Made by a program: the position numbers and the translations under genes
Notes under the pieces: model-generated
What the model was told of the DNA's origin: nothing
The model's database searches: none
What the model saw: only the letters and a program-made list of their open reading frames with translations
Shown: positions 9,504 through 60,693 of the stretch, in pieces
How the letters are laid out: every line of letters starts with the position of its first letter
Position numbering within the stretch: the first letter of the stretch is position 1
Origin: a virus
Lineage: Duplodnaviria > Heunggongvirae > Uroviricota > Caudoviricetes
Strand: one strand, 5' to 3'
Length of the DNA stretch: 64,000 nt
Virus record (IMG/VR): IMGVR_UViG_3300001199_000003
Coordinates: 58,537 to 122,536 of that record

Positions 9504-10475
9504 ATGAAAAACGCACTTAAATTTACACTGAGCTTGATGCTCGTTGCCTTTATGGTAGCGGTTCCTGCTCAAGCAGGGGCGATTAAAAAGATCGTTCTTA
9601 CTTCAGACAATACACTCAGTCTTAATGATGCTGTTACTGGCGCTTCAGTTGCTGAAGTTATCACTAAAGCTAAAGAACTGGACAGTAGCTTTGGTGTTTA
9701 CGCCACTATTACCGGCAAGAAAGATATCTATTTTTATCTTCGCACTCCAGGTGGATCAATTCAATCCGGCCTTGAGATGTTTGAAGCTCTTAATGGCCTT
9801 GATCGTCCAGTTCACACTATTACTAGCTTTGCAGCTTCTATGGGTTTCCAGACGGTTCAAAACCTTGGAAAACGCTATATTGTTAAAAGCGGTGTTTTGA
9901 TGTCCCACAGAGCGTCAGGTGGATTTGAAGGATCATTTGGTGGACAAAAACCGAGCCCAATGGACTCTCAAAAGAACTTCTGGGAACAACGTCTTCACGA
10001 AATGGATATGAAAACCGTAGAGCGCACTAAAGGTAAGCAAACTCTAGCTTCTTACCAAGCTCAATACGCTCCTGATATGTGGTTAACCGGTACTCAAGCT
10101 GTTGAGCAAGGATATGCTGACGAAGTTGTTCAAGTTCAGTGCGATTCATCTTTGGCCGGAGTGACTACTAAATCTGTGAATTTCATGGGTTTAATCAATA
10201 TCAACTACGACCTTGATAATTGTCCTTTAAATTCTACTCCAATGAATATCCGTATTTCTCGTATCGCTACCAATAAAGGTGAAATGGACTTTAATAAGTT
10301 TCAAGCTGCTGGCGGCGGATACGGTGTTGACTGTCTAATCGCTTCTGGTACTGATAAAACTAAGGTTTGTGCTACTAACACTTCCCTTAATGCTGAAAGA
10401 ATATATGGTCTTAAAAATGAATTCCGTAATTACTATATGGATATTAAAGGCCAAGTAAAGAACTTCAGATATTAA
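9504..10475 (+). CDS. secreted ClpP-class (S14/S49-like) serine protease
   Basis: N-terminal signal peptide MKNALKFTLSLMLVAFMVAVPAQAG. ClpP-type active-site block ITSFAASMGF. Four cysteines in the C-terminal part. Confidence 0.45.
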   Translation: MKNALKFTLSLMLVAFMVAVPAQAGAIKKIVLTSDNTLSLNDAVTGASVAEVITKAKELDSSFGVYATITGKKDIYFYLRTPGGSIQSGLEMFEALNGLDRPVHTITSFAASMGFQTVQNLGKRYIVKSGVLMSHRASGGFEGSFGGQKPSPMDSQKNFWEQRLHEMDMKTVERTKGKQTLASYQAQYAPDMWLTGTQAVEQGYADEVVQVQCDSSLAGVTTKSVNFMGLININYDLDNCPLNSTPMNIRISRIATNKGEMDFNKFQAAGGGYGVDCLIASGTDKTKVCATNTSLNAERIYGLKNEFRNYYMDIKGQVKNFRY

Positions 10476-22824: not shown

Positions 22825-23307
22825 ATGAAACGAAGTAACGGATTTGTACTATTTTGGGGAGGACCTTTCTCTCAATGGTATCCACATAAAATGACTATTA
22901 ACGGCGTAGAATATAACTGTTGTGAGCAGTACATGATGGCTGAAAAAGCCCGTACCTTCGGAGACGCTGAAGCTTTGGAAGCAATTATGAAGTCTTCAGA
23001 TCCTAAGTATCAGAAAGCCGTAGGTCGCGGTGTTAAAAATTTCAATCCACATATCTGGGAAAAAATAGCAATGGACGTGGTTCTTAGAGCCAATATTGCT
23101 AAGTTCTCAGATCCAGAGCTTAAGAAATTCCTCTTTAGTTTTGGCAATGAAGAGATCGTTGAAGCTAGCCCTTACGATAAGATTTGGGGTATCGGCCTTT
23201 CTGAAAACGATCCAGATGCTTTAGATAAGACTAAATGGCAAGGACAAAACCTGCTTGGCGAAGCTATTATGCAAGCTCGCGAAGTATTAAAAAATTCGGT
23301 GGCTTAA
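22825..23307 (+). CDS. NADAR (YbiA/DUF1768) domain protein
   Basis: FWGGPFSQWYP...VEYNCCEQYMMAEKARTFGD...IWGIG fits the NADAR family pattern. Confidence 0.7.
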   Translation: MKRSNGFVLFWGGPFSQWYPHKMTINGVEYNCCEQYMMAEKARTFGDAEALEAIMKSSDPKYQKAVGRGVKNFNPHIWEKIAMDVVLRANIAKFSDPELKKFLFSFGNEEIVEASPYDKIWGIGLSENDPDALDKTKWQGQNLLGEAIMQAREVLKNSVA

Positions 23308-27907: not shown

Positions 27908-28714
27908 GTGTATTCTAATAGTATGAAAAAACTACTTATCATTCTAATGATCGCTTTACTTGGATGTACTGAAAAGCCTAAAGCTCCTACGCAGGAGACC
28001 AAAGTAGAATCTGCTCAAATGCGTAAGAAGAAAAAGCGCTACATTTGTGGCGAGAAAACTGTCGTAGTAGCCGTGATTGATACTGGGTTTAGTTTTTCCG
28101 ATCTCACTAAAAATGTAAGACTTTGCAATGAAGGTCACAGAGATTTTAGCGGAATGAACGAATTCGATAATCGTTACACTAAAACTCCAGTTCCTACCGA
28201 TAGCGATAAAGATTTTCATGGAACAAATATAGCTGGCTTGATCCAAGACTTTGGCTCTTATGCTAATTTCTGTATGGTAATTATCAAATATTATGATCCA
28301 AAAGCCACAGGTCAACAGAGCTTAGAAGCCAGTATCGCCGCAGTTAAATATGCAACTGACATTAAAGCGGATTACATTAACTATTCTAGTGGTGGCCAAT
28401 TATCTAATGATGCTGAGAATGTAGTCATTAAAGCGTATTTAGATCAAGGTGGAAAATTTATAGCTGCTGCTGGTAACGAAGCAGAGAATACAGATATTGC
28501 TCCTTTCTATCCTGCTATGTCAGATCCACGCATCGTATCTGTTGGTAGCACGGACATGTACGGCAAAAGACTTCCAACCTCTAATTACGGACCTAAAGTT
28601 ACTACGTGGGAAATTGGAGATAAGATGAAAGCTTTTGGAATCGTTAGAACTGGAACCAGTCAAGCAGCTGCTATTGTAACAGGTAAAACACTTAGAAAAG
28701 AATGTATCAAATAA
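27908..28714 (+). CDS. subtilisin-like (S8) serine protease lipoprotein
   Basis: Lipobox LLGC. Asp VAVIDTG, His DFHGTNIAG and Ser GTSQAAAIVTG catalytic blocks. Confidence 0.55.
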   Translation: MYSNSMKKLLIILMIALLGCTEKPKAPTQETKVESAQMRKKKKRYICGEKTVVVAVIDTGFSFSDLTKNVRLCNEGHRDFSGMNEFDNRYTKTPVPTDSDKDFHGTNIAGLIQDFGSYANFCMVIIKYYDPKATGQQSLEASIAAVKYATDIKADYINYSSGGQLSNDAENVVIKAYLDQGGKFIAAAGNEAENTDIAPFYPAMSDPRIVSVGSTDMYGKRLPTSNYGPKVTTWEIGDKMKAFGIVRTGTSQAAAIVTGKTLRKECIK

Positions 28715-31297: not shown

Positions 31298-32722
31298 ATG
31301 GATTTAATGACACTTGGTATTGTGGCAGGCGGAATTCTAGGCCTAGCCGGTATCGCTTTCCTAGTAGCAGTCAGTTTACGTCGAGTCGTTCCTACGAACG
31401 AAGTTCACATTGTTCAGTCTGCAGCAAGCACTACGTCTTACGGTAAGGGAACTGGTCACGGTAACTCTTACTTTGAATGGCCTACTTCTATCCCTTTCCT
31501 GGGCGTAAGTAAGACAGTCATGCCTACATCTAACTTCGACGTAGATCTTAAAGCGTATGAAGCTTACGATGACGGTCGTCTCCCTTTCCTGGTAGATATT
31601 AAAGCATTCTTTAGAATTGCTGACTCAAACGAAGCTGCTCAAAAAGTTGCTAACTTTGATGAACTTCTTAATCAGTTAACTGCCATTGTTCAAGGTGCTG
31701 TACGTACTGTTTTGGCTTCAAACTCGATTGAAGAAATTATGCAAGGCCGCTCTAAGTTCGGTACTGAGTTCACTAAAGAAGTTCACGAACAGCTTAAAAA
31801 CTGGGGTGTTGAAACTGTTAAGAATATCGAACTTATGGATATTCGCGATGCTAAGGATTCTAAAGTAATCCACAACATCATGGAAAAGAAAAAGTCTCAA
31901 ATTGAATCTGAATCTCGCGTAGCTGTAGCGAATAACCACAGAGATGCTGAGCTTGCAGAAATCGCGGCTCGTCAGCAAACTGATCTTAAAGCTCAAGAAG
32001 CTCAAGAAGCAGTTGGTCTTCGTACTAACGAACAAGAAAAAGCCGTAGAGATTGCTAAACAAGAGAAAATTCAAGCTCTTAAAGAGCAAGAAAAGACGAC
32101 TAAAGAAAAAGAAATGGCCGTTATTAAGATTGGTAAGCTTCGTGAAGCAGAGATTGCTAAAGAAGTTGCCCTTGTTAAGTCTGAACAGGATAAACAAGTT
32201 GCTTTGATTCGCTCTGAGCAAGAGAAGCAAGTTGCGGTTATCGCTGCAGAAGGTGAAAAACAAAGAATTGAGCTTGAGTCTTCTGGTCAGTTGAAAGCTA
32301 CCCAAAACCAAGCTGAAGGTATCGCCGCTACTGGTAAAGCAAATGCTGAAGCTGAACAAGCTATCCTTGCTGCTCCAGTTAATGCCCAGATTCTTTTGGC
32401 CAAAGAGATCGGTGGAAACGAGTCGTACCAGAAGTACCTCATCACTATCGAGCAAGTTAAAGCTAACGCTCAAGTCGGTATGGAACAAGCTAAGGCTCTC
32501 CAAGCTGCTGACGTTAAAATTATCTCAAACTCTGGTAAGTCAACTGACGGCCTTAAGAGCGTAATGGATGTCTTCTCTTCCCAAGGTGGAGTAGAAATCG
32601 GTGCGATGCTTGAAGGTCTAGCTGCTACTGAGAAAGGTCAAGAGTTGATTGGTAAGTTTTTAGGTGGAAAGAAAACAGCAGCTGCTGATAAAAGCCCACT
32701 AAGTGACTCAGCTAAATCGTAA
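31298..32722 (+). CDS. SPFH/band-7 (flotillin-like) membrane protein
   Basis: N-terminal transmembrane helix, SPFH-like core, then a long Glu/Ala/Lys coiled-coil repeat region as in flotillins. Confidence 0.6.
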   Translation: MDLMTLGIVAGGILGLAGIAFLVAVSLRRVVPTNEVHIVQSAASTTSYGKGTGHGNSYFEWPTSIPFLGVSKTVMPTSNFDVDLKAYEAYDDGRLPFLVDIKAFFRIADSNEAAQKVANFDELLNQLTAIVQGAVRTVLASNSIEEIMQGRSKFGTEFTKEVHEQLKNWGVETVKNIELMDIRDAKDSKVIHNIMEKKKSQIESESRVAVANNHRDAELAEIAARQQTDLKAQEAQEAVGLRTNEQEKAVEIAKQEKIQALKEQEKTTKEKEMAVIKIGKLREAEIAKEVALVKSEQDKQVALIRSEQEKQVAVIAAEGEKQRIELESSGQLKATQNQAEGIAATGKANAEAEQAILAAPVNAQILLAKEIGGNESYQKYLITIEQVKANAQVGMEQAKALQAADVKIISNSGKSTDGLKSVMDVFSSQGGVEIGAMLEGLAATEKGQELIGKFLGGKKTAAADKSPLSDSAKS

Positions 32723-39016: not shown

Positions 39017-39739
39017 ATGACTACTGAATCGAACCATAAATTAGATAAAAAGATTAAAGCGAAGTCCGACGACCACGTCTGGCACGTTCACGAATATGAC
39101 GTAGATTTGCAATCTAACCACATATACTTGATGGGTATGGAAAGCTACGCTGCGGGACATGAAGAGATGATCGGTGAGCCAGGAGTTGAATACTCCATGG
39201 CCAATAGATTCATCCGAAACTTGAACATCTGTATGCGTGCTAATCCAGATAAGCCTATTGTGATCCACATGAAAACCTGTGGCGGTCTGTGGGAAGAAGG
39301 CATGGCGATTTATGACGCGATTAAGTCGTGTCCAATGCCTGTAACTATCTTAAACTACACACATGCGCGTTCTATGTCGAGTCTGATCTTCCAAGCCGCT
39401 AATAAGCGTGTTATGATGCCCCATAGTTACTTCATGTACCACGATGGCACTTTGGCTGTAGATGGTACGACTAAGACGGTGATTTCTAATATTGAGTTCA
39501 CACAGAAGGTCAGCCAGGCAATGCTTGACATCTATGTTGATTCGATGAAGCTTTCTGGCAAGTACAAAAATCGTTCTCGTAAATGGCTCTACGCTTACCT
39601 GCGTGAGCAAATGGACAAGAAAGAAGACGTATTCGTAGTAGCTAAAGAAGCTGTGGAACTAGGATTTGCTGACTCAGTGTTTGATTACAACTGGGCTAAA
39701 CTGACCGATTACACTCAAGAAGAATTAGCTAGAGGATAA
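39017..39739 (+). CDS. ClpP-like (S14) protease
   Basis: IVIHMKTCGGLWEEGMAIYDAIK...ARSMSSLIF...MYHDG parallels ClpP INSPGG...AIYD...AASMGS...IHQP. Confidence 0.55.
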   Translation: MTTESNHKLDKKIKAKSDDHVWHVHEYDVDLQSNHIYLMGMESYAAGHEEMIGEPGVEYSMANRFIRNLNICMRANPDKPIVIHMKTCGGLWEEGMAIYDAIKSCPMPVTILNYTHARSMSSLIFQAANKRVMMPHSYFMYHDGTLAVDGTTKTVISNIEFTQKVSQAMLDIYVDSMKLSGKYKNRSRKWLYAYLREQMDKKEDVFVVAKEAVELGFADSVFDYNWAKLTDYTQEELARG

Positions 39740-41733: not shown

Positions 41734-41936
41734 GTAAAGAAATTATTGTCCCGATTTGCTGGTTAAATGGTGGAAATATGATTGATCGGGATACCCTCCC
41801 TTCAGATCACCCAGAATCCATGTACGGTTACATTAAGTATTCATTGAAGCTAAGACCGGAAGATTACGGTATCTATACCGATAAACAGATCGCAGAGAAT
41901 AAAATCAAACAGAGTGAAGAACTCGCAAAACACTAG
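41730..41936 (+). CDS. hypothetical protein
   Basis: Track ORF. Confidence 0.4.
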   Translation: MSKEIIVPICWLNGGNMIDRDTLPSDHPESMYGYIKYSLKLRPEDYGIYTDKQIAENKIKQSEELAKH

Positions 41937-42939
41937 CATGGAGACGGACATGAGTGAACTAGATGATGCAGCAGAGTGGGCCTCAGCGGCAGAAAACTTT
42001 GATGGCGATAAAAACGAAGGTAAGCAAAGTCTAAGAGGCAGCGCTCCAGACTACGATGATGACGATGACACGACTAAGAATCCTGGACAGCCGAATCAAT
42101 ACGCTCTATATGGAGCTGGCTACATGGCTACAACACCTACTATCAAATCGTTAGTAGCTGGCTGTTACGATATCCAAGCCGATAACCGTGGCGTATTCGT
42201 GGTTCCGGCATTACCTCCATCTGGGATTCTATTAGAGTTACCGGAAATGAGATCCGATGAAGTAATCCGCGTAGTGGATAACTTTTGGAACTCTGAAGCA
42301 GACTATAAAGATGGAAACGATTTCGTAGTAGGTGGCGCACAGTTCAAAGCTGGTGTGATGATCTACGGTCCTCCAGGATCAGGTAAGTCGTGTACGATTA
42401 AGATCGTATCTAAGAAACTAGTTGAAAGAGGTGGAACAGTATTCTTCAGTTCTGGCCACCCATCTAACACAATGCGTTGGTTGGAAGATTTCGCTAGAGT
42501 TGAGCCAAACAGAAAGTGCATTGTTATTTTAGAAGATATTGATAGTTTGATCCATAACTATGGTGAATCGAACTACCTAGAGATGTTAGATTCGGCCAAA
42601 ACGATTAATAATGTCTTGTTTATTGCCACGACGAACTATCCTGAGCACTTAGATCCTCGTATCTATAACCGTCCAGGTCGTTTTAGCCATGTAATTAAGA
42701 TCGGTCTTCCAGTTCCTGCGACTCGCGAAGCTTACCTCAAAGCGATCCTCAAGAATCACCAGGATGTTGAAGAGATCGTTAAAGAGTCTGAAGGCTTCAC
42801 AATCGACCACTTGACCGCGTTGGTTAACGGTGTGTATCGTGAGAAGAAAGACCTCAAAACCGAGCTTAAACGCCTCCGTACACTGTTTAAAGTACCTAAA
42901 GGTAGCGATAAGCCTGCTCTGGGGCTCAGCAATGGGTAA
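41914..42939 (+). CDS. AAA+ ATPase
   Basis: Walker A GVMIYGPPGSGKSCT and Walker B VIVILEDIDSL. Confidence 0.65.
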   Translation: MKNSQNTSMETDMSELDDAAEWASAAENFDGDKNEGKQSLRGSAPDYDDDDDTTKNPGQPNQYALYGAGYMATTPTIKSLVAGCYDIQADNRGVFVVPALPPSGILLELPEMRSDEVIRVVDNFWNSEADYKDGNDFVVGGAQFKAGVMIYGPPGSGKSCTIKIVSKKLVERGGTVFFSSGHPSNTMRWLEDFARVEPNRKCIVILEDIDSLIHNYGESNYLEMLDSAKTINNVLFIATTNYPEHLDPRIYNRPGRFSHVIKIGLPVPATREAYLKAILKNHQDVEEIVKESEGFTIDHLTALVNGVYREKKDLKTELKRLRTLFKVPKGSDKPALGLSNG

Positions 42940-44142: not shown

Positions 44143-44568
44143 GGGGGCGCGTAGTTTCGACAGGGGAACGGAGAACGAAAGGTGCAAGACGTGGAAGGGA
44201 TGAAGGCCACGTAAAAATCATTCCAATTTTATACGGCAACGTAGAAGAAAAAATGGCTGCTTAATTCCCTCACGGGAATGGCGCTTGAGGTGTTTGTCTA
44301 CCGATAACAACAAAGGCTACCATGGCTGTATCTCAGAGCCAACCCTAAGGGAGAATCTGATTAGTTTGTTCATTCTTAAAATGAACTGGTGGACGGTAGT
44401 CTTGGTGAGTAACCTTGGCAATCCCACGAGGCTGATCGACACTCGTTAAACGACGATTACGCCGCAAGGCAAGAGTCACTCAACTCTCTAATCATGGGTC
44501 AATCTTGTGCATGACCTTAGTTTGATGATCTTTTGGACGCGGGGGGCGGCTCCCCGCCGCCTCCACCA
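44143..44568 (+). ncRNA. ssrA: tmRNA (SsrA-like transfer-messenger RNA)
   Basis: The 5' GGGGGCG pairs with the 3' CGCCUCC as a 7-bp acceptor stem with a G3:U70 wobble. T-arm GCGGGG/CCCCGC and a 3' CCACCA end, followed by a T6 run. The 5' UUCGACAGGGG segment resembles the tmRNA D-loop analogue. Internal frame GGC AAC GUA GAA GAA AAA AUG GCU GCU UAA at 44235-44264 encodes a tag ending in Ala-Ala-stop. Confidence 0.6.
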
Positions 44569-44574
44569 TTTTTT

Positions 44575-45229
44575 ACGAGTGCGCGCAGTCGCAGAAACGA
44601 GACACGTAAACACTGCGCTGACATCCAGCAAAGACTGGAGGGCCAGAGCCTCGGTAGCCCTAAACTATCCGAAAGCGTTAGTAGGTGCTTCCAGGGTCGG
44701 CTGAAGCTTAATGGCGCTACCGTCGTCGCCTACTTTTATTAAATTCAGATGAGCCGAAAGGCTTAAGCCGGTTTGGGCGAAAAAGGCTGAAACCCATTTA
44801 TGGTGGCTATGGTGTAACGGGTCGTAAGACAGGCACGGCGGTTTGTGGAACCGTTGGTGAGGTTTCAAATACCTCTAGTCACCCCATTTTTATGGCGAGA
44901 AATGATCAGATGATCAGGGGCGGTTCCTAATGGTATTTAGGGCCTCGAAAGTTCGGAGCGTAGTGTAGGTTCGAGTCCTACCCAACTTTCTCTAGTTCGC
45001 AGCTAGGCTCGCCACCTTTTAAATTTAAGTAAGCCGCAAGGCTTTGAGCCAGGGGAAGCTAAGGCTAAATCTTCCTAATCTTCATAGGGTGAGGTCTACG
45101 TGCCTGAGCGAAAGCTCGAATCCGATGGCTTGCTGTCTGGTCATGCTTTTAAAACGTAGAGAACCAGGCTAGTGTGGAAGTGTTGAAATAGGCAATAACG
45201 CAATAAAAATCACATTTCACAAATCCCAA
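44575..45229 (+). other. structured non-coding RNA region with tRNA-like modules
   Basis: No credible ORF. Repeated hairpins AGCC-GAAA-GGCT (44752-44763), AGCC-GCAA-GGCT (45032-45043) and GAGC-GAAA-GCTC (45106-45117). T-arm-like GAGGU-UUCAAAU-ACCUC (44859-44875) with CCA at 44884-44886. Second T-arm GUAGG-UUCGAGU-CCUAC (44965-44981). Confidence 0.35.
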
Positions 45230-45253
45230 CCCGCCTGAAAAGGCGGGTTTTTT
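45230..45253 (+). terminator. rho-independent terminator
   Basis: Stem CCCGCC, loop UGAAAA, stem GGCGGG, followed by a T6 run. Confidence 0.6.
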
Positions 45254-45302
45254 ATTTGACATCGAAATGAAGCTGAGATACTATTCCGCGTAAGAGGTTT
45301 TA

Positions 45303-45755
45303 ATGAAAATGATGTTTGCCGAAATATTCTTTCTACTTACGATTATTACTATAATCCACGAACTTGGTCACTTTCTTATGGCCAAATACTTCAAATTCAA
45401 TATAAAAGAATTCTCCATCGGTAGTGGATTTACGATCTTTGAGCAGAAAATAAAGAACACAATGCTTGTCTTAAAACTAGTCCTACCTTTGGGTGGACAT
45501 ATTCGTGTTGATTTTGAAGTCAATAAGTTCAAACAGATGGACGACAGAAAACTCTTAGGTATCATCTGCGTCTCATTAGCTGGACCATTCATGAATATTA
45601 TCGTGGCTTTACTTACTTTCCAATATAACTTTGCATTCGCCGCTATGAGTTTTCTTACAGGAATTACAAACCTTCTACCGTTCGATATGACCGATGGAGA
45701 TATAGCCTTGGGCGGCATTAGGGAATACCTTAAAAGACGTAAGGAGAAAGCATGA
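45303..45755 (+). CDS. minimal site-2 protease (M50 family intramembrane metalloprotease)
   Basis: First TM helix carries IIHELGHFLMAKYF (HExxH), as in RseP TVHEFGHFWVARR. FSIGSGF...LPLGGHIRV matches FSIGFG...IPLGGYVKM. C-terminal NLLPFDMTDGD matches the NLLPxxxLDGG motif. No PDZ domains. Confidence 0.55.
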   Translation: MKMMFAEIFFLLTIITIIHELGHFLMAKYFKFNIKEFSIGSGFTIFEQKIKNTMLVLKLVLPLGGHIRVDFEVNKFKQMDDRKLLGIICVSLAGPFMNIIVALLTFQYNFAFAAMSFLTGITNLLPFDMTDGDIALGGIREYLKRRKEKA

Positions 45756-45964
45756 TGCCGCCAGACTACTGGTCAGCTCTTCCAGACCATAACTTCCTTA
45801 CGATTGTAATGTTTATCTTAAAATTCTACCTCACCATGTTCATTTTTATGGCCTTAAACGTAGCTTTCATGGTAGGATCGGTATGGGGACTGCTTTTCAT
45901 CTGTCGAGCCCTTGGAATACCTTGGATCGACGGCACTAAGAAAGGTTTCATTAATAGGAGTTAA
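45752..45964 (+). CDS. small membrane protein
   Basis: Two hydrophobic helices. Confidence 0.35.
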   Translation: MMPPDYWSALPDHNFLTIVMFILKFYLTMFIFMALNVAFMVGSVWGLLFICRALGIPWIDGTKKGFINRS

Positions 45965-45965
45965 C

Positions 45966-46346
45966 ATGAAAGCTTGCAACGATTGTGGACAAAGACTTTG
46001 GTCAACCGACAAGGGCGTTTGCCCTACCTGTAGACCAGATGAAAATCGCGCAGTTTACGGACTTAAGCCTTTACAGGAAGTGGTATTTAAGCAAGAACCT
46101 ACGATCAAAACTATGATTGACACTAATCCTCTTGCTCCAAGTCTCAGAACTCAAAAGACTAAGGGCCGCCCAACTAATCCAGCTCAAGAAGGGTTTGAGA
46201 ACTCTGAATCACTAGAAAACGTGATCAAGTCCCATATCCTTAAATCTTACGAGCTGAGCGGTAAGAACAAATCACGAGCCGCTAATAAGCTTGGAATTAC
46301 CGTGAAAACCCTCTATAATCACCTTGATCGGTATGGAGTTGTATGA
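45966..46346 (+). CDS. zinc-ribbon protein with Fis/NtrC-type HTH
   Basis: N-terminal CNDCGQ...CPTC. C-terminal KSRAANKLGITVKTLYNHLDRYG resembles the Fis-family HTH. Internal start of the track ORF 45912..46346. Confidence 0.45.
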   Translation: MKACNDCGQRLWSTDKGVCPTCRPDENRAVYGLKPLQEVVFKQEPTIKTMIDTNPLAPSLRTQKTKGRPTNPAQEGFENSESLENVIKSHILKSYELSGKNKSRAANKLGITVKTLYNHLDRYGVV

Positions 46347-46792
46347 AAATCAAATCAATGATGGTAAACCTACTAGAAGGTCTTAGACAGCCAGAAAATC
46401 GTGGCGTCGGCCACACAAGAAACGCTATTGAGTTTGCTAAGTCAATTGGTGCTTTATATGTGATGCCACTGATTGGAAGCTTTCATACTGTGGATAAGGA
46501 ATTTAGTAACTCCAAAAATCTCATATCTTTGACTCAAATTGAGCTTGGCGCTCTCAGATCAAGAAAGGGCCCAATCGTACTGGATAACTATACGATTTCC
46601 TTTATTTTAGAAGAATCTCTACGTGGTTTTCGCGCTCTAGAGGATATGGCGCAAGCTTCTGAAAGAGTAGCAGAACGGGCTCAAGTTGAGGCTAATGAGT
46701 TGCGTGCTGAGCTAAACGAATATAAGACTCAGACAGAGAAAATGAAGAAAGTAATCGAAAAACTAAATAATAAAACTGGAAAGAAGAAATGA
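46343..46792 (+). CDS. hypothetical protein
   Basis: Track ORF with a C-terminal coiled coil. Confidence 0.45.
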   Translation: MKIKSMMVNLLEGLRQPENRGVGHTRNAIEFAKSIGALYVMPLIGSFHTVDKEFSNSKNLISLTQIELGALRSRKGPIVLDNYTISFILEESLRGFRALEDMAQASERVAERAQVEANELRAELNEYKTQTEKMKKVIEKLNNKTGKKK

Positions 46793-47262
46793 GAGATTTA
46801 TATCAATTTCATGAAGAACTCTACGAAGTGATTGGAGAGTCTGAGATTACCCAATTTCAGGATGGCCACCCTTTTACGTATCCTGCTTTGATTCTAAAAG
46901 AGGTAGATTCTGGTAAATCCAAAATAGTACCTAAGAATTCTCTGGACCGTCTTGGAAAGCGGGTTCCGTCTAATGTGCGCGATATTGATTCTGTAGAACA
47001 GTTCCAGCAGTGCCTGCAAGCCGCTTTTCAAGGCCGATTCACGACCATGATCAATTCTTACTCCTCAGAAGAATACGTTAAATATAAGACCGCCATGACT
47101 ACCAATGTTGAGAACTACAATCGTGGGTTTCAGGAAGGTCGTCTTACAAAAGAATCTAAAAGCCTTTTGGAAAGCTTCGCAATGATGCTGTTAGTATCAG
47201 CTGAAATGTTCGCCAAAGAGAAGGCTGAAAAACTGCGCCCTCAACCTGAACCTAAAGAGTAA
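46789..47262 (+). CDS. hypothetical protein
   Basis: Track ORF. Confidence 0.45.
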   Translation: MRDLYQFHEELYEVIGESEITQFQDGHPFTYPALILKEVDSGKSKIVPKNSLDRLGKRVPSNVRDIDSVEQFQQCLQAAFQGRFTTMINSYSSEEYVKYKTAMTTNVENYNRGFQEGRLTKESKSLLESFAMMLLVSAEMFAKEKAEKLRPQPEPKE

Positions 47263-47298
47263 TCCGCAAACAAATTTCCGCAGACTATCTTTGCGGAT
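47262..47298. promoter_or_regulatory. perfect 9-bp inverted repeat ATCCGCAAA / TTTGCGGAT with a 19-nt spacer
   Basis: Upstream of the HD hydrolase gene at 47308. Confidence 0.35.
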
Positions 47299-47307
47299 AA
47301 GGAAGAT

Positions 47308-47826
47308 ATGAAGTACGAATTAAACCTAGTTTCAGTAGCTCGCCAATTTGCCGAAGAAGCTCATGGTGATCAAAAATACGACAATATGCCTTATACTAAC
47401 GCGCACTTGGACAAAGTTGTTCATACTCTGACGTTCTTCACAAACGATCCAGTTGTTTTGGCTATGGGATATCTTCACGATGTTTTAGAAGATACTTCTG
47501 TGACCTACGATGAATTAGCTAAGACTTTTGGTCACGTTATAGCCAATGGAGTCCTAGCTTTAACGGACCAGAAAGGTAACTCTCGTTTTGAGAGACAATT
47601 CCTTACCTACGTGAGACTTCGCGACAATCGTGAAGCTCTCCTGGTTAAGCTCTGCGACCGTATCACGAATATGCGCGCATCATTTGGCACAAAACACGCT
47701 GCCGCTTACGTTAAAGAATATGAGCGTTTTAAGGGCTCACTCTACGTAGAAGACGATCTATTTGAAGGTGCTTGGATTATCTTAGATTCACTATATAATG
47801 GCTTACTTGATGAGAGTAAAAAATGA
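47308..47826 (+). CDS. HD-domain phosphohydrolase, SpoT/Mesh1-like (p)ppGpp hydrolase family
   Basis: AMGYLHDVLEDTSVTYDEL matches the HD motif of the RelA/SpoT hydrolase domain (LLHDVVEDT). 172 aa, single domain. Confidence 0.5.
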   Translation: MKYELNLVSVARQFAEEAHGDQKYDNMPYTNAHLDKVVHTLTFFTNDPVVLAMGYLHDVLEDTSVTYDELAKTFGHVIANGVLALTDQKGNSRFERQFLTYVRLRDNREALLVKLCDRITNMRASFGTKHAAAYVKEYERFKGSLYVEDDLFEGAWIILDSLYNGLLDESKK

Positions 47827-48041
47827 AAATAAACTCTTATGAAGAAAATAATGATGGTAAAAAAGACATAATTCTTACTGAAAATGGTAAAGATATTGTA
47901 ATCATTAAAGAAGAGTTCTATAAGCCATACGCCACTTACGAGCAGATGCAAGATCCAATTGAGATGGCCAAAATAGTATCTTCGGTGTTTTTAGCTATTG
48001 CGCTTAGGATGGCGAAAGAGAAAAACCTTGATAGTAAATGA
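47823..48041 (+). CDS. hypothetical protein
   Basis: Track ORF. Confidence 0.35.
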   Translation: MKINSYEENNDGKKDIILTENGKDIVIIKEEFYKPYATYEQMQDPIEMAKIVSSVFLAIALRMAKEKNLDSK

Positions 48042-49633: not shown

Positions 49634-49852
49634 ATGATCTTATTTATATTGGCTTGGTTCATTATGGGACTTATCTCACACGTTCTGAACGAAAAATGCC
49701 ACAAAGTATGTGGATTCCACCAGGAATTCGATTCATTCGGTGACGTAGCCGTAGTCATGTTGGGCCCAATTTGCGGTATTATCGCAATTGCAGCCATGAT
49801 CATGCTGGTCTCTTACTCTAAAATTAAAAGCAAATTCGGCAATAAACAATGA
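49634..49852 (+). CDS. small two-helix membrane protein (holin-like?)
   Basis: Two hydrophobic segments and a charged C-terminus. Confidence 0.35.
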   Translation: MILFILAWFIMGLISHVLNEKCHKVCGFHQEFDSFGDVAVVMLGPICGIIAIAAMIMLVSYSKIKSKFGNKQ

Positions 49853-50316
49853 TTCGATGGGATAAAATCTGGCTTCTAATTTGTAACATGGATACGTTAA
49901 GTACCTTAAGCCCAAAAGTAGCTAAATTCCTGTGGAACGAATGTCCTCTTAAAATCTATCTCTCCAGCCAAGAAGACGTGGCTACTTATTGGTACGACGG
50001 AACCTGGAGCAAGCCCATCCATATTGAGTTGGGCAAGTTCAGATCCCGCAAATTGCGCTACACAGCCCTTCTACACGAAGTTGGCCACTATAAAGATCAC
50101 ACTATTCTAAAGCACCGATTCCGCAAGTCAGACCAAAAGAAGTGCGAGAAAGCTGCTTGGAAATGGGCTCTTAGATTTTCAGAGAAATACCAAATACCTA
50201 TCAATTTAGAAGTAGCTAGGCTTTGGCTTAACACTTATGGGGCTAAATATAAGTGCCTCGATAATAAGGTGGAACAAAATGAAACTCAAATGCGTAATAA
50301 ACAAAACAGAACCTAG
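49849..50316 (+). CDS. HExxH-motif putative metallopeptidase
   Basis: ALLHEVGHYKDH resembles the ImmA/IrrE-type HExxH motif. Confidence 0.35.
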   Translation: MIRWDKIWLLICNMDTLSTLSPKVAKFLWNECPLKIYLSSQEDVATYWYDGTWSKPIHIELGKFRSRKLRYTALLHEVGHYKDHTILKHRFRKSDQKKCEKAAWKWALRFSEKYQIPINLEVARLWLNTYGAKYKCLDNKVEQNETQMRNKQNRT

Positions 50317-58377: not shown

Positions 58378-60693
58378 TTATTTACCGATTTTCTTGACTG
58401 TTAACTGTCTTAAAGTGTTAGTTCCTGTGTTAGCTGCCACAGACCAATAGGTGTCTATTTTATGAGAGCCTTTTGGTAAATATACAGGGACAGAAAAAGA
58501 GATTGGCACTTCTAATCCAGAAGATGGAGCGTTCATTCTATTAATTGTTTGAACTTGTTGCCCGTTTACGAAAGGAGCAATGGTCACAGCAACACCTGTA
58601 GTTGAGTTAAGGATCGCTCCATAAAAATTAATCTCTACCCATTCACCCTCAGACTCATAAGTCAAACTCATATCAGGCATAGGAACAAATGTGGTTGAAG
58701 TTGTAGTAGGATTTGAAGTAACGCCTACAGCTAATTTTATTTTAGCTTTATCTGATTGCTCAATTAAAGTTTCTCTAAGATCTCCGATAGCACAAGACCC
58801 AATAGGTAAATTATTTTGTACTGCAAGCTCGTCATATTTAGGAAAATAAACAGGAGTAATTATATCTAAAGCAGCGATTACAAAATTTGTACCAGCACCA
58901 TGAGTGAATCTAACAGTATGCTTACCAAGTGGAAGTCCAGTTAACGCCATTACGCCTTGGCCAAGAGCTGTGGCTCCGTTTAAGTTAAGGACGCCAGTTG
59001 AAGGAGTGAAAACAATAGCATTATCTCTAGTGGCTACTGCTGGGCCAGATCCAGTTGCTCCGCCTCCATTATGGGAGATGGTGAAATTAGCCGTACTTAA
59101 GGCTACGCCATCTATCAAAATAGAAGAACTTGTGGCTAAGTTTGTATCTCTGTAAGTACGCATGTTGAAACCAGTTCCGAAGAACGTAAATTCTGCGTAA
59201 GCACCTGCGGTTTGAGTAGTAACTGCGTTACCGGTAGAAACAGCTGTAGGGCTTTGACTGACTGACAGCCAAGTATTAACTAGGAGAGTTTCTTTAGATG
59301 AAGCTTTTTGTAGTACCCCCTGAGACATAGAATCGGTACTAAAAGCTGACATATAGCTATAGTCAGCCATTAAAAAATATTCACCAATTTCAACTGCGTT
59401 TGCAGGTAAAGCCGGTTTTTTAGGTTGATAGACGTTGAAACCAGCAACAAAAAGACCTACGCCAACCGCAGTTGTTCTTGTGATTTTAACCGTATGGGTT
59501 CCGTAAGGAAGTCCAGACACAATTTTAACGGTATTGTTTAATCCAGTTCCGAAATAAGAACTAAGACCAGTCCCAATAGATATACCGTCAACAGCAATAC
59601 TGAAAGTATCTGTAACGGCAGCTCCTCGGACGTTTATAATATCTAGACCAGTACCTACAAACGTAATGGTAAAAAAATCACTGGCAGCGTTAAGTCCAAA
59701 TCCCTCTACGGCAGTAATAAAACTAGCAGTTACCGATGTAGCAGATAAACTAGTAGTTCCATCGTTAAGAGTAAAAGCTCTTGCTGAAGGTGTGCTAGAT
59801 AAAGAAACAAAATCATCTGCGCGGTTAACCCCAAATTCACGGAAGCTGTACGTGCGAACCAAATCCTCATTCGCGTGATCAGCAGAACCTAAATTAGACT
59901 GTGAAGCAGCGGCTGGACTAATAGCCTTGCCGACAGTTCCGTCTGGTTTAAAATAAAGTAAAACTCGTCCACCAGTAGTACCAAGAGTTCCAGATTCAAA
60001 GCCAGAATTATAGGCAGAAGAAACAGCAGAGTTTAAGTTAAATTTTTGACCGTTTTTAAGCAACGATCCAGGTCTAATATTTAGCGTTGACGATTCATTA
60101 AGAACTTCAAACCCATATAAATTGAGATCTTTTGAGACAGTATTGTTGCGAATTCTAACTGTGTGTAATCCTAAAGATAGTCCAGAAACAATAGGCAGAA
60201 CAGTATTAGCGTTGTAGTTTCTAGAAACCAATAACCCAGAATAAGAGGCTGAAGCTAGGTTAGCCGTCTCAGCTCCACCGTCAATAGAAGCCACAATGTT
60301 ATGGGTAGCTGCGTTTAATATCAAATTAAGATTTAATCCAGTACCGTAAAAGGTAATTTCTATAAAATCTGTAATATTTAATCCAGAATTTACCCTAGAT
60401 CCAGCCGCATCATTAGCTGAATACCATGATCCAGCTAAACGAATCTGACCATAAAGATCTCCAACAATCCCAAAAACAGGCTGGCCAGTTGAAGTGGTTT
60501 CGTTCTGAATTTGATATAATCTTTGGCATGGAATACGTTCAACGCCAAATCTCATACTAATATCATTGGCCAAATCATTGATCTGGGCGCGATTTACGAT
60601 AGTCGTATTCGGAACAGAAATTTTGGACACAGAAAGTTTTTGGCCAGAAATCTTGCCGAATTGCTCTTGTACCGCAAAGCTTGTACGTGACAT
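58378..60693 (-). CDS. large virion structural protein, paralog B (tail fibre/receptor-binding-like)
   Basis: 771 aa. Shares multiple blocks with 61153..63738 (NTTIVNRAQ, FGxxRADDF...RAFTL, IVSGLPYGTHTV, YQPKKPA). Rich in Gly/Thr/Asn/Ser. Confidence 0.5.
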   Translation of the reverse strand: MSRTSFAVQEQFGKISGQKLSVSKISVPNTTIVNRAQINDLANDISMRFGVERIPCQRLYQIQNETTSTGQPVFGIVGDLYGQIRLAGSWYSANDAAGSRVNSGLNITDFIEITFYGTGLNLNLILNAATHNIVASIDGGAETANLASASYSGLLVSRNYNANTVLPIVSGLSLGLHTVRIRNNTVSKDLNLYGFEVLNESSTLNIRPGSLLKNGQKFNLNSAVSSAYNSGFESGTLGTTGGRVLLYFKPDGTVGKAISPAAASQSNLGSADHANEDLVRTYSFREFGVNRADDFVSLSSTPSARAFTLNDGTTSLSATSVTASFITAVEGFGLNAASDFFTITFVGTGLDIINVRGAAVTDTFSIAVDGISIGTGLSSYFGTGLNNTVKIVSGLPYGTHTVKITRTTAVGVGLFVAGFNVYQPKKPALPANAVEIGEYFLMADYSYMSAFSTDSMSQGVLQKASSKETLLVNTWLSVSQSPTAVSTGNAVTTQTAGAYAEFTFFGTGFNMRTYRDTNLATSSSILIDGVALSTANFTISHNGGGATGSGPAVATRDNAIVFTPSTGVLNLNGATALGQGVMALTGLPLGKHTVRFTHGAGTNFVIAALDIITPVYFPKYDELAVQNNLPIGSCAIGDLRETLIEQSDKAKIKLAVGVTSNPTTTSTTFVPMPDMSLTYESEGEWVEINFYGAILNSTTGVAVTIAPFVNGQQVQTINRMNAPSSGLEVPISFSVPVYLPKGSHKIDTYWSVAANTGTNTLRQLTVKKIGK

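Follow-up and report, generated by a model that had tools for sequence, protein, structure and literature searches.

A divergent stand-alone small alarmone hydrolase encoded by a large uncultured phage

What would a phage gain from carrying an enzyme of the alarmone hydrolase type? The question is raised by one gene in a 64,000-nucleotide stretch of viral DNA (hereafter the window; positions 58,537 to 122,536 of the IMG/VR record IMGVR_UViG_3300001199_000003, Caudoviricetes), which an earlier note, made from the sequence letters alone, had described as a stand-alone SpoT/Mesh1-like HD hydrolase. Family searches, the predicted fold and the catalytic motifs bear this description out: judged by profile matches and a structural model, the encoded protein of 172 amino acids (aa) is a single-domain RelA/SpoT-homologue (RSH) hydrolase, that is, a small alarmone hydrolase (SAH). 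The reading that we favour, with a probability of about 0.72, is that of a stand-alone SAH, carried as a mobile accessory gene of a large phage, which would erase alarmone-type growth-arrest signals during infection. Genes for a portal, a helicase, an SbcC-like protein, the alpha subunit of DNA polymerase III, DnaB, a tail fibre and a protease of the head-maturation/ClpP-like type identify the window as phage DNA. The SAH is identical to a protein (P0001) encoded on the 171,229-bp contig SRR2043728_6406, and the source is a large uncultured phage of at least 171 kb.

Comparison with Pfam gave a match to HD_4, the RelA/SpoT-type HD domain, with 38.4 bits (gathering threshold 27.2); it is the only domain matched in the 172 residues, with no synthetase, TGS or ACT domain. 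PHROG 990 ('metal-dependent phosphohydrolase') was matched with an E value of 1.5e-36. The NCBIfam model spoT_relA (TIGR00691) was matched with an E value of 1.7e-13 at model positions 3–121 only, corresponding to the N-terminal hydrolase region, and with a score of 49.8 bits, far under the full-length cut-off of 499 bits. A sequence search of the PDB returned 20 chains at E ≤ 8.1e-6, all of which are Rel/SpoT/RelA hydrolase domains or named SAHs/Mesh1, with the exception of Lmo0812 (4yf1), a small HD protein without an assigned function. The matches included B. subtilis Rel (1.1e-11), the SAH of P. aeruginosa (PaSAH, 5e-10), Drosophila Mesh1 (4e-9), human Mesh1 (1e-8) and C. glutamicum RelH. 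Profile and PDB matches of this strength lie well outside what chance would give. Pairwise scores were 39.7 bits for PbcSpo, 45.4 for PaSpo, 42.8 for PaSAH, 38.5 for Mesh1 and 48.3 for B. subtilis Rel, all so similar that no SAH subfamily (Jimmy et al. 2020) is assignable from them.

The same searches bear on the simplest rival explanation, in which the protein has nothing to do with alarmones and is either a phosphohydrolase of the generic HD superfamily type or an inactive remnant. Many phage records do label homologues only 'metal-dependent phosphohydrolase'. The generic HD family PF01966, however, stayed below its threshold (15.4 bits vs 22) while the RelA/SpoT-specific HD_4 passed, and the best matches are therefore not the unrelated HD phosphohydrolases which the earlier note had named as evidence that would speak against it. 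The metal-binding and catalytic residues are intact and invariant, the structural model is confident over its full length, and 65–71% identity is kept in other phages. Contradicted by the Pfam, PDB-sequence and Foldseek matches alike, this explanation is extremely improbable.

Six hydrolase motifs of RSH enzymes, HD1 to HD6, were defined by Bisiak et al. (PMC9293644). In their scheme the HD1 Arg stacks on the base, the HD2 His and the HD3 His-Asp bind the metal, the HD4 Glu-Asp activates the nucleophile, the HD5 Asp together with an Arg/Lys serves the metal, and the HD6 Asn contacts the base or ribose. Five of these motifs, HD2–HD6, are canonical in the window protein, whereas HD1 deviates (Table 1). 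The LHDVLEDT block pointed out in the earlier note is present as residues 56–63. Residues H33, H57, D58, E61, D62, D117 and N121 align with H35, H61, D62, E65, D66, D122 and N126 of human MESH1 (the sequence used being identical to 3NR1), N121 aligns with N150 of TtRel, and the catalytic residues align with the corresponding residues of the phage proteins PVP-SE1 gp220 and SSU5_099. Across 33 homologues, HD2–HD6 are invariant or nearly so, and the metal-ligand His and Asp are invariant, as they also are in comparison with MESH1, PVP-SE1 gp220 and SSU5_099. The best sequence match is the hydrolase domain of the long RSH enzymes (Rel, SpoT), which has the HDVxEDT and DRxxNMR blocks in common with the window protein; the latter differs in having no synthetase, TGS or ACT domain, in the exchange of the HD1 Arg for Tyr, and in an Ala in place of T153.

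At HD1, the place of the Arg is taken by Tyr24. Of the 150 nearest representatives, 128 were parseable at this position, and 123 of these have a Tyr there; so do 54 of the 58 parseable IMG/VR loci, and the D-R of HD5 is kept in 55 of those 58. On these alignments, Tyr24 is a feature of a large clade, many members of which are encoded on viral contigs, with cultured examples in Caulobacter phage CcrSC (gp295), Nodularia phage (2AV2_156) and Pseudomonas phage REC (gp34). At HD1, SAHs of established activity deviate as well, with Leu in PaSAH and Asp in many others, the Arg being typical and not obligatory (PMC9293644). PaSAH, whose HD1 Leu aligns with Tyr24, resembles the window protein in having no HD1 Arg and an intact HD5, and is nevertheless active (PMC9293644); Tyr24 therefore does not argue against activity. 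The Tyr-HD1 clade offers an easy test of HD1 identity as a determinant of base or RNA specificity.

An AlphaFold2 model, built on the 33 homologues, was confident over the full length, with a predicted local distance difference test score of 95.5, a predicted template modelling (TM) score of 0.91 and ten helices. Searches with Foldseek gave as best matches MESH1 (9chy, TM 0.81), PaSAH (6yvc, 0.78–0.81) and RelH, with a probability of 1.00 for MESH1 and PaSAH, and 34 of 34 matches at E ≤ 1e-3 were RSH hydrolases or the phage-associated hydrolase Aph1. The model superposes end to end on SAH chains of 173–180 residues, and a library of viral structures contains many phage HD proteins with the same fold. 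PaSAH (6YVC, 6Z3N) is thus matched over its full length; it differs from the window protein in being encoded by a chromosomal bacterial gene, in its identity of only 24–25% in structural alignments, and in having Leu, not Tyr, at HD1. The best structural match, MESH1 (HDDC3; 3NR1, 5VXA, 9CHY), superposes with a root-mean-square deviation of 2.7 Å over 179 columns. It differs in its eukaryotic origin, a longer HD1 loop containing Arg, an identity of 26–28% in Foldseek alignments, and a reported NADPH phosphatase activity.

This last activity raises the possibility of a different substrate, with the protein acting as a phosphatase on some other 3'- or 2'-phosphorylated nucleotide, such as NADPH, 3'-phosphoadenosine 5'-phosphosulfate (PAPS) or the like, an activity reported for MESH1 of metazoans. 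In the structure search, MESH1 with PAPS (9chy) indeed ranks first, MESH1 with NADPH (5vxa) is also listed, the HD1 Arg is replaced, and RSH catalysis is versatile (bioRxiv 10.1101/2021.04.30.441581). MESH1, however, also hydrolyses (p)ppGpp and detoxifies toxic small alarmone synthetases (toxSAS), and nothing in the phage context points to NADPH or sulfur metabolism. We consider a non-alarmone substrate improbable.

The closest functional parallels are PVP-SE1 gp220 (PbcSpo) and SSU5_099 (PaSpo), both from Salmonella phages and, like the window protein, single-domain HD_4 proteins (169–213 aa). All three are encoded alone, in lytic or plasmid-like phages, and their HD2, HD3, HD4 and HD6 residues are identical. 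They differ at HD1, which is Tyr in the window protein but Asp in PVP-SE1 gp220 and Arg in SSU5_099, and at HD5, where D-R contrasts with D-L in both Salmonella phage proteins. The neighbouring genes also differ, with a thymidylate kinase lying upstream of the PVP-SE1 SAH. The stand-alone SAHs of the two phages neutralise all five toxSAS toxins against which they were tested (PMC7229694). SAHs restore the aminoacylation of tRNA that has been pyrophosphorylated at its CCA end (bioRxiv 10.1101/2021.04.30.441581), the SSU5 PaSpo SAH strips the tRNA modification in cells (PMC11245113), and toxSAS, CapRel being an example, act as defences against phages (PMC9712102). Because of these phage SAH, tRNA and CapRel experiments, the erasure of alarmone-type growth-arrest signals is rated the best explanation of the gene. 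The earlier note had likewise proposed a counter to the stringent response or to toxSAS and (p)ppApp-based defences. This proposal agrees with a published hypothesis and with experiments on the two other phage SAHs (PMC7229694), from which we infer it for the window protein.

In the mechanism that we propose, H33, H57, D58 and D117 would hold a divalent metal (Mn2+ in characterised members), and the E61-D62 pair would activate a water molecule, cleaving the 3'-pyrophosphate off 3'-pyrophosphorylated purine nucleotides, (p)ppGpp and/or (p)ppApp. A further possible substrate, shown for other SAHs, is tRNA with a pyrophosphorylated 3'-CCA end. Made during infection, the enzyme would erase growth-arrest signals, and the host stringent response and toxSAS abortive infection would then be unable to stop translation or the nucleotide supply before phage replication is complete. 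Escape from alarmone-based growth arrest and toxSAS abortive infection is the role generally ascribed to phage SAHs, to which the window SAH adds a divergent example from a large phage that is uncultured. Stand-alone SAHs of phages are already known and partly characterised; the present one is a new divergent member of the apparently unassayed Tyr-HD1 clade.

Several points weigh against the erasure of growth-arrest signals as the role of the gene. The window protein is only 27% identical to PVP-SE1 gp220, 28% to SSU5_099 and 29% to MESH1 in the multiple alignment, and local BLASTP alignments gave 36% over 112 aa for PVP-SE1 gp220 and 30% over 155 aa for SSU5_099. The guanine-stacking HD1 Arg of Rel enzymes is replaced by Tyr24, and TtRel T153 by Ala124, so that guanine specificity is not to be assumed. 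No activity data were found in the literature for the window protein or for any member of the Tyr-HD1 clade. Lastly, the scan for synthetases covered ~71 kb of the 171-kb contig, leaving room for a phage-borne synthetase in the remaining ~100 kb.

The main job of the same enzyme might alternatively be to take over the host, by removing the (p)ppGpp made by host RelA/SpoT and so keeping rRNA and tRNA transcription, translation and purine synthesis going throughout the long replication programme of a large phage. Hydrolysis of (p)ppGpp is what defines the family, the phage carries genes that serve translation and proteostasis, namely a transfer-messenger RNA (tmRNA), a tRNA and two ClpP-like proteins, and earlier work has suggested such a role for other SAHs of phages (PMC12846349; PMC7229694, discussion). 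Against it, the guanine-stacking Arg of HD1 is missing throughout the clade, and the experiments on phage SAHs have dealt solely with toxSAS neutralisation. We regard it as possible, though not as the favoured explanation; the two roles, host takeover and counter-defence, are not mutually exclusive.

The gene was also considered as an immunity protein, resembling a type IV antitoxin, for a toxic synthetase encoded elsewhere in the same phage, for instance a MuF-fused (p)ppApp synthetase or a PhRel-type toxSAS. Pairs of this kind are known, namely Aph1/Apk2 in a Bacteroides prophage (PMC10083569) and ATfaRel/FaRel (PMC7229694), and ~100 kb of the contig lie beyond the synthetase scan. No match to PF04607, the RelA_SpoT synthetase domain, was found on any called gene between contig positions 69,758 and 140,947, and the neighbours of the SAH carry no such domain, whereas known immunity SAHs adjoin their toxin. 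Among the 113 open reading frames (ORFs) that immediately flank SAH relatives in 59 dereplicated viral loci, 32 Pfam families were matched; no synthetase occurs among the 25 most frequent, and the other seven families have one member each. Longer relatives showed no synthetase fusion, the only fusion being one with YiiD_C. Judged from these ~71 kb and from the relatives, an immunity role is very improbable. The commonest Pfam family occurred only three times among the flanking ORFs, so that no neighbour is conserved. With no alarmone synthetase within ~71 kb and no neighbour conserved across relatives, the gene stands alone.

Aph1 itself (7SMG) shares with the window protein an HD fold and a phage association, and cleaves a 3'-pyrophosphate (PMC10083569). 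It is a clearly poorer structural match than MESH1 and PaSAH, with a TM of 0.56–0.58, gave no phmmer match at E ≤ 1, and lies next to its toxin, unlike the window SAH. Membership in the Aph1 type was judged by the signature D24, R96, D116, R119, K133 and Y134 together with detectable similarity to Aph1. The near-base residues D24, D116 and R119 correspond in the window protein to Y24/K23, R123 and F126. An Aph1-type (p)ppApp-specific hydrolase was accordingly considered and rejected, positions N+2 and N+5 after HD6 being R123 and F126 and not Asp and Arg, and the D24 equivalent not being Asp. The Rel-like N-M-R after HD6, without D116 and R119, disfavours Aph1-type (p)ppApp specificity.

The nearest homologues are 71% and 65% identical and are encoded on two other phage-like contigs (L001 and L002), the flanks of which share only the SAH gene with the window. 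Because nothing else is shared with these flanks, the SAH is a mobile accessory gene that moves between phages. The family is large, with 10,693 database representatives at E ≤ 1e-3 and 2,012 at E ≤ 1e-10, and relatives were found in at least 388 IMG/VR contigs and in 438 GenBank phage records, all at <60% identity. A megablast search with 8 kb against 50,697 phage records returned no close DNA relatives, and a single-protein scan of IMG/VR returned no close phage relatives. In both L001 (1103–3298) and L002 (1296–1958), proteins with Pfam matches to DruA, and in L001 only also to Gad2, are encoded with the SAH 2.7–4.9 kb downstream, and genes for an SNF2 helicase, an RNase_T-like exonuclease and a dCMP deaminase come after the SAH. 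The DruA/Gad2-type neighbourhood suggests an accessory or anti-defence region.

Table 1 Features of the window in and around the SAH gene.
Feature	Position	Strand	Description
SAH ORF	47308–47826	+	ATG to TGA, 172 aa plus stop
HD1 loop H19-G-D-Q22-K-Y24	47362–47379	+	canonical Arg position Q+2 is Tyr24
HD2 His33 (metal ligand; MESH1 H35 equivalent)	47404–47406	+	invariant in both multiple alignments
HD3 H57, D58 (metal ligands) and HD4 E61, D62 (catalytic pair)	47473–47496	+	L56-H-D-V-L-E-D-T63
HD5 D117 (metal ligand) with R118, and HD6 N121	47656–47670	+	D117-R-I-T-N121
Shine-Dalgarno-like AAGGAAG	47299–47305	+	2 nt before the SAH ATG; seen in the sequence, putative role
Perfect 9-bp inverted repeat	47262–47298	.	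ATCCGCAAA (47262–47270) / TTTGCGGAT (47290–47298), spacer 19 nt
Downstream 72-aa ORF	47823–48041	+	ATG overlaps the SAH stop (ATGA)
Phage tmRNA	44143–44568	+	Rfam RF00023, 75.4 bits vs gathering score 47, full-length; 2.7 kb upstream of the SAH
tRNA-like gene, 81 nt	44803–44883	+	Rfam tRNA, 49.3 bits, anticodon GUG (His); 2.4 kb upstream of the SAH
Strong intrinsic terminator	45228–45249	+	9-bp stem, 6 GC pairs, then TTTTTATTT
Promoter-like site TTGACA-17-TACTAT	45256–45284	+	just after the terminator
Peptidase_M50 (site-2 protease) homologue	45303–45755	+	150 aa, HELGH motif, E 5.7e-23; first in the string that includes the SAH

Two RNA genes lie upstream of the SAH, and neither was called by ARAGORN (Table 1). 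The tmRNA encodes the tag GNVEEKMAA* (GGC AAC GTA GAA GAA AAA ATG GCT GCT TAA, start 44235) and has the acceptor-stem pair G3:U70, a 3' end of CCACCA and a non-canonical T-loop of 9 nt. In the tRNA-like gene, the 5' start is G-1-like and the D-loop is longer by an insertion of 12 nt; the gene may represent a tRNA-His that is unusual or degenerate. Across relatives, a tRNA or tmRNA gene was found within 10 kb of the SAH in 33 of 80 viral loci, and 331 of the 333 cases were on the strand of the SAH. A tmRNA was found within the same distance in five of the 80, starting ~20–30 nt after the SAH gene in two of these. Tight linkage of SAH and tRNA genes looked promising from the count within ±3 kb (20 of 60 loci with tRNAs) but was rejected on the ±10 kb control: loci with a tRNA numbered 10 at 0–3 kb, 11 at 3.5–6.5 kb and 15 at 7–10 kb from the SAH, with no peak at the SAH. 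As tRNA density has no such peak, only regional co-location and same-strand orientation remain, and we treat the tRNA and tmRNA genes near the SAH as a case of regional co-location in accessory regions, not of demonstrated linkage.

These genes would nevertheless fit an enzyme whose chief task is the repair of RNA ends, by removing the 3'-pyrophosphate that toxSAS of the CapRel, FaRel2 and PhRel types set on the CCA of tRNA, and so protecting host tRNAs as well as the phage tRNA and tmRNA. SAHs, including that of phage SSU5, do this in vitro and in vivo, the RNA genes are co-located as described above, both in the window and in the relatives, and the RNA-repair proteins Thg1, HAD_SAK_2 and RtcB (in phage BDU-MI-1) are occasional neighbours. 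The co-location may, however, mean nothing more than that the genes share an accessory region, conserved neighbours are lacking, and the loci with an adjacent tmRNA may belong to one lineage. RNA-end repair as the chief task is unlikely. A related idea concerns the Tyr-HD1 clade (H-x-x-Q-x-Y ... K-L-[AC]-D-R-I-x-N), which might prefer a substrate other than (p)ppGpp, for example adenine alarmones or the pyrophosphorylated 3'-CCA of tRNA or tmRNA; its members would then be RNA-end repair or counter-defence enzymes travelling with phage tRNA/tmRNA islands. Based on the HD1 sequences and on the tRNA/tmRNA co-location, this idea is doubtful and quite speculative. Taken with the tmRNA, the tRNA and the ClpP-like proteases, the SAH hints at a broader strategy to keep host translation running.

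Among the relatives, tmRNA genes lie on the same strand as the SAH homologue, directly after it or 1.2 kb after it, in L128 (10504–10847), L132 (10457–10804) and L144 (11679–12031), three IMG/VR contigs of 96–105 kb with the tags ANPALALAA, AEPLKLAA and ANTALPLAA, respectively; these may represent one phage lineage. A tmRNA within 10 kb of the SAH was also present in L117 and L119. In Bradyrhizobium phage BDU-MI-1 (L173, 115886–117791), a homologue with the canonical HD1 Arg overlaps the start of an RtcB RNA ligase gene, and the RNA-repair domains Thg1 and HAD_SAK_2 were seen once each among the neighbours of SAH relatives. In the window, both RNA genes fall in an ORF-poor stretch of ~1 kb (44240–45300) with the terminator and the promoter-like site at its end; a further 235 nt and 345 nt in it are unassigned, and it may hold additional small RNAs.

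The SAH ORF itself lies at the positions given in the earlier note, and 45 nt separate it from the upstream ORF (46789–47262). The inverted repeat that the note had placed just upstream is there exactly as described, perfect over 9 bp with a 19-nt spacer. Perfect 9-mer inverted-repeat seeds with spacers of 3–30 nt number 11 in the window, compared with 9.3 ± 3.9 in Markov-1 random sequences, and the repeat 9-mer, allowing up to one mismatch, occurs 19 times, compared with 17.1 ± 4.3 expected, and is thus not enriched. The RNA fold of the region has −11.3 kcal/mol vs −11.1 ± 2.6 for shuffles (z = −0.09), and the predicted fold favours a shorter alternative hairpin. No T-run follows the repeat, so that it is not an intrinsic terminator, and it is absent from the list of the terminator scan. 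It is also absent upstream of the 65–71% identical genes in L001 and L002, which overlap a different upstream ORF. A role as regulatory element or terminator was rejected on these grounds (chance frequency, ordinary fold, no T-tract, no conservation in L001 and L002). The repeat is incidental, without evidence for a part in the function of the hydrolase.

The 72-aa ORF downstream of the SAH is likely translationally coupled to it; it has neither a Pfam nor a PHROG match above threshold, and the hydrolase homologues of 65–71% identity do not have it as a neighbour. The terminator and promoter-like site probably mark the start of a co-directional string of small, overlapping genes (45303–48041+), for which we infer operon status. 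Its members are an M50-type peptidase fragment (the Peptidase_M50 homologue, without a PHROG match), a small membrane protein, a Fis-type HTH (helix-turn-helix) protein, two proteins with no assigned function, the SAH and the 72-aa ORF. Further downstream, a 155-aa ORF (49849–50316, +) without a Pfam or PHROG match contains an HEVGH (HExxH-type) motif and is possibly a small metalloprotease.

The window is unusually rich in genes for proteolysis and quality control. Two proteins with a CLP_protease domain are encoded at 9504–10475 (+) and 39017–39739 (+), the second also matching head-maturation protease PHROGs, and the set further comprises the tmRNA, an AAA ATPase (41914–42939), an S8 peptidase (~27908–28714) and a Band_7 protein (31298–32722). 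A 160-aa protein with a NADAR domain is encoded at 22825–23307 (+), and in one IMG/VR locus a NADAR gene also lies right beside a relative of the SAH. Since NADAR domains have a link to the processing of ADP-ribose, the NADAR gene of the window possibly serves counter-defence.

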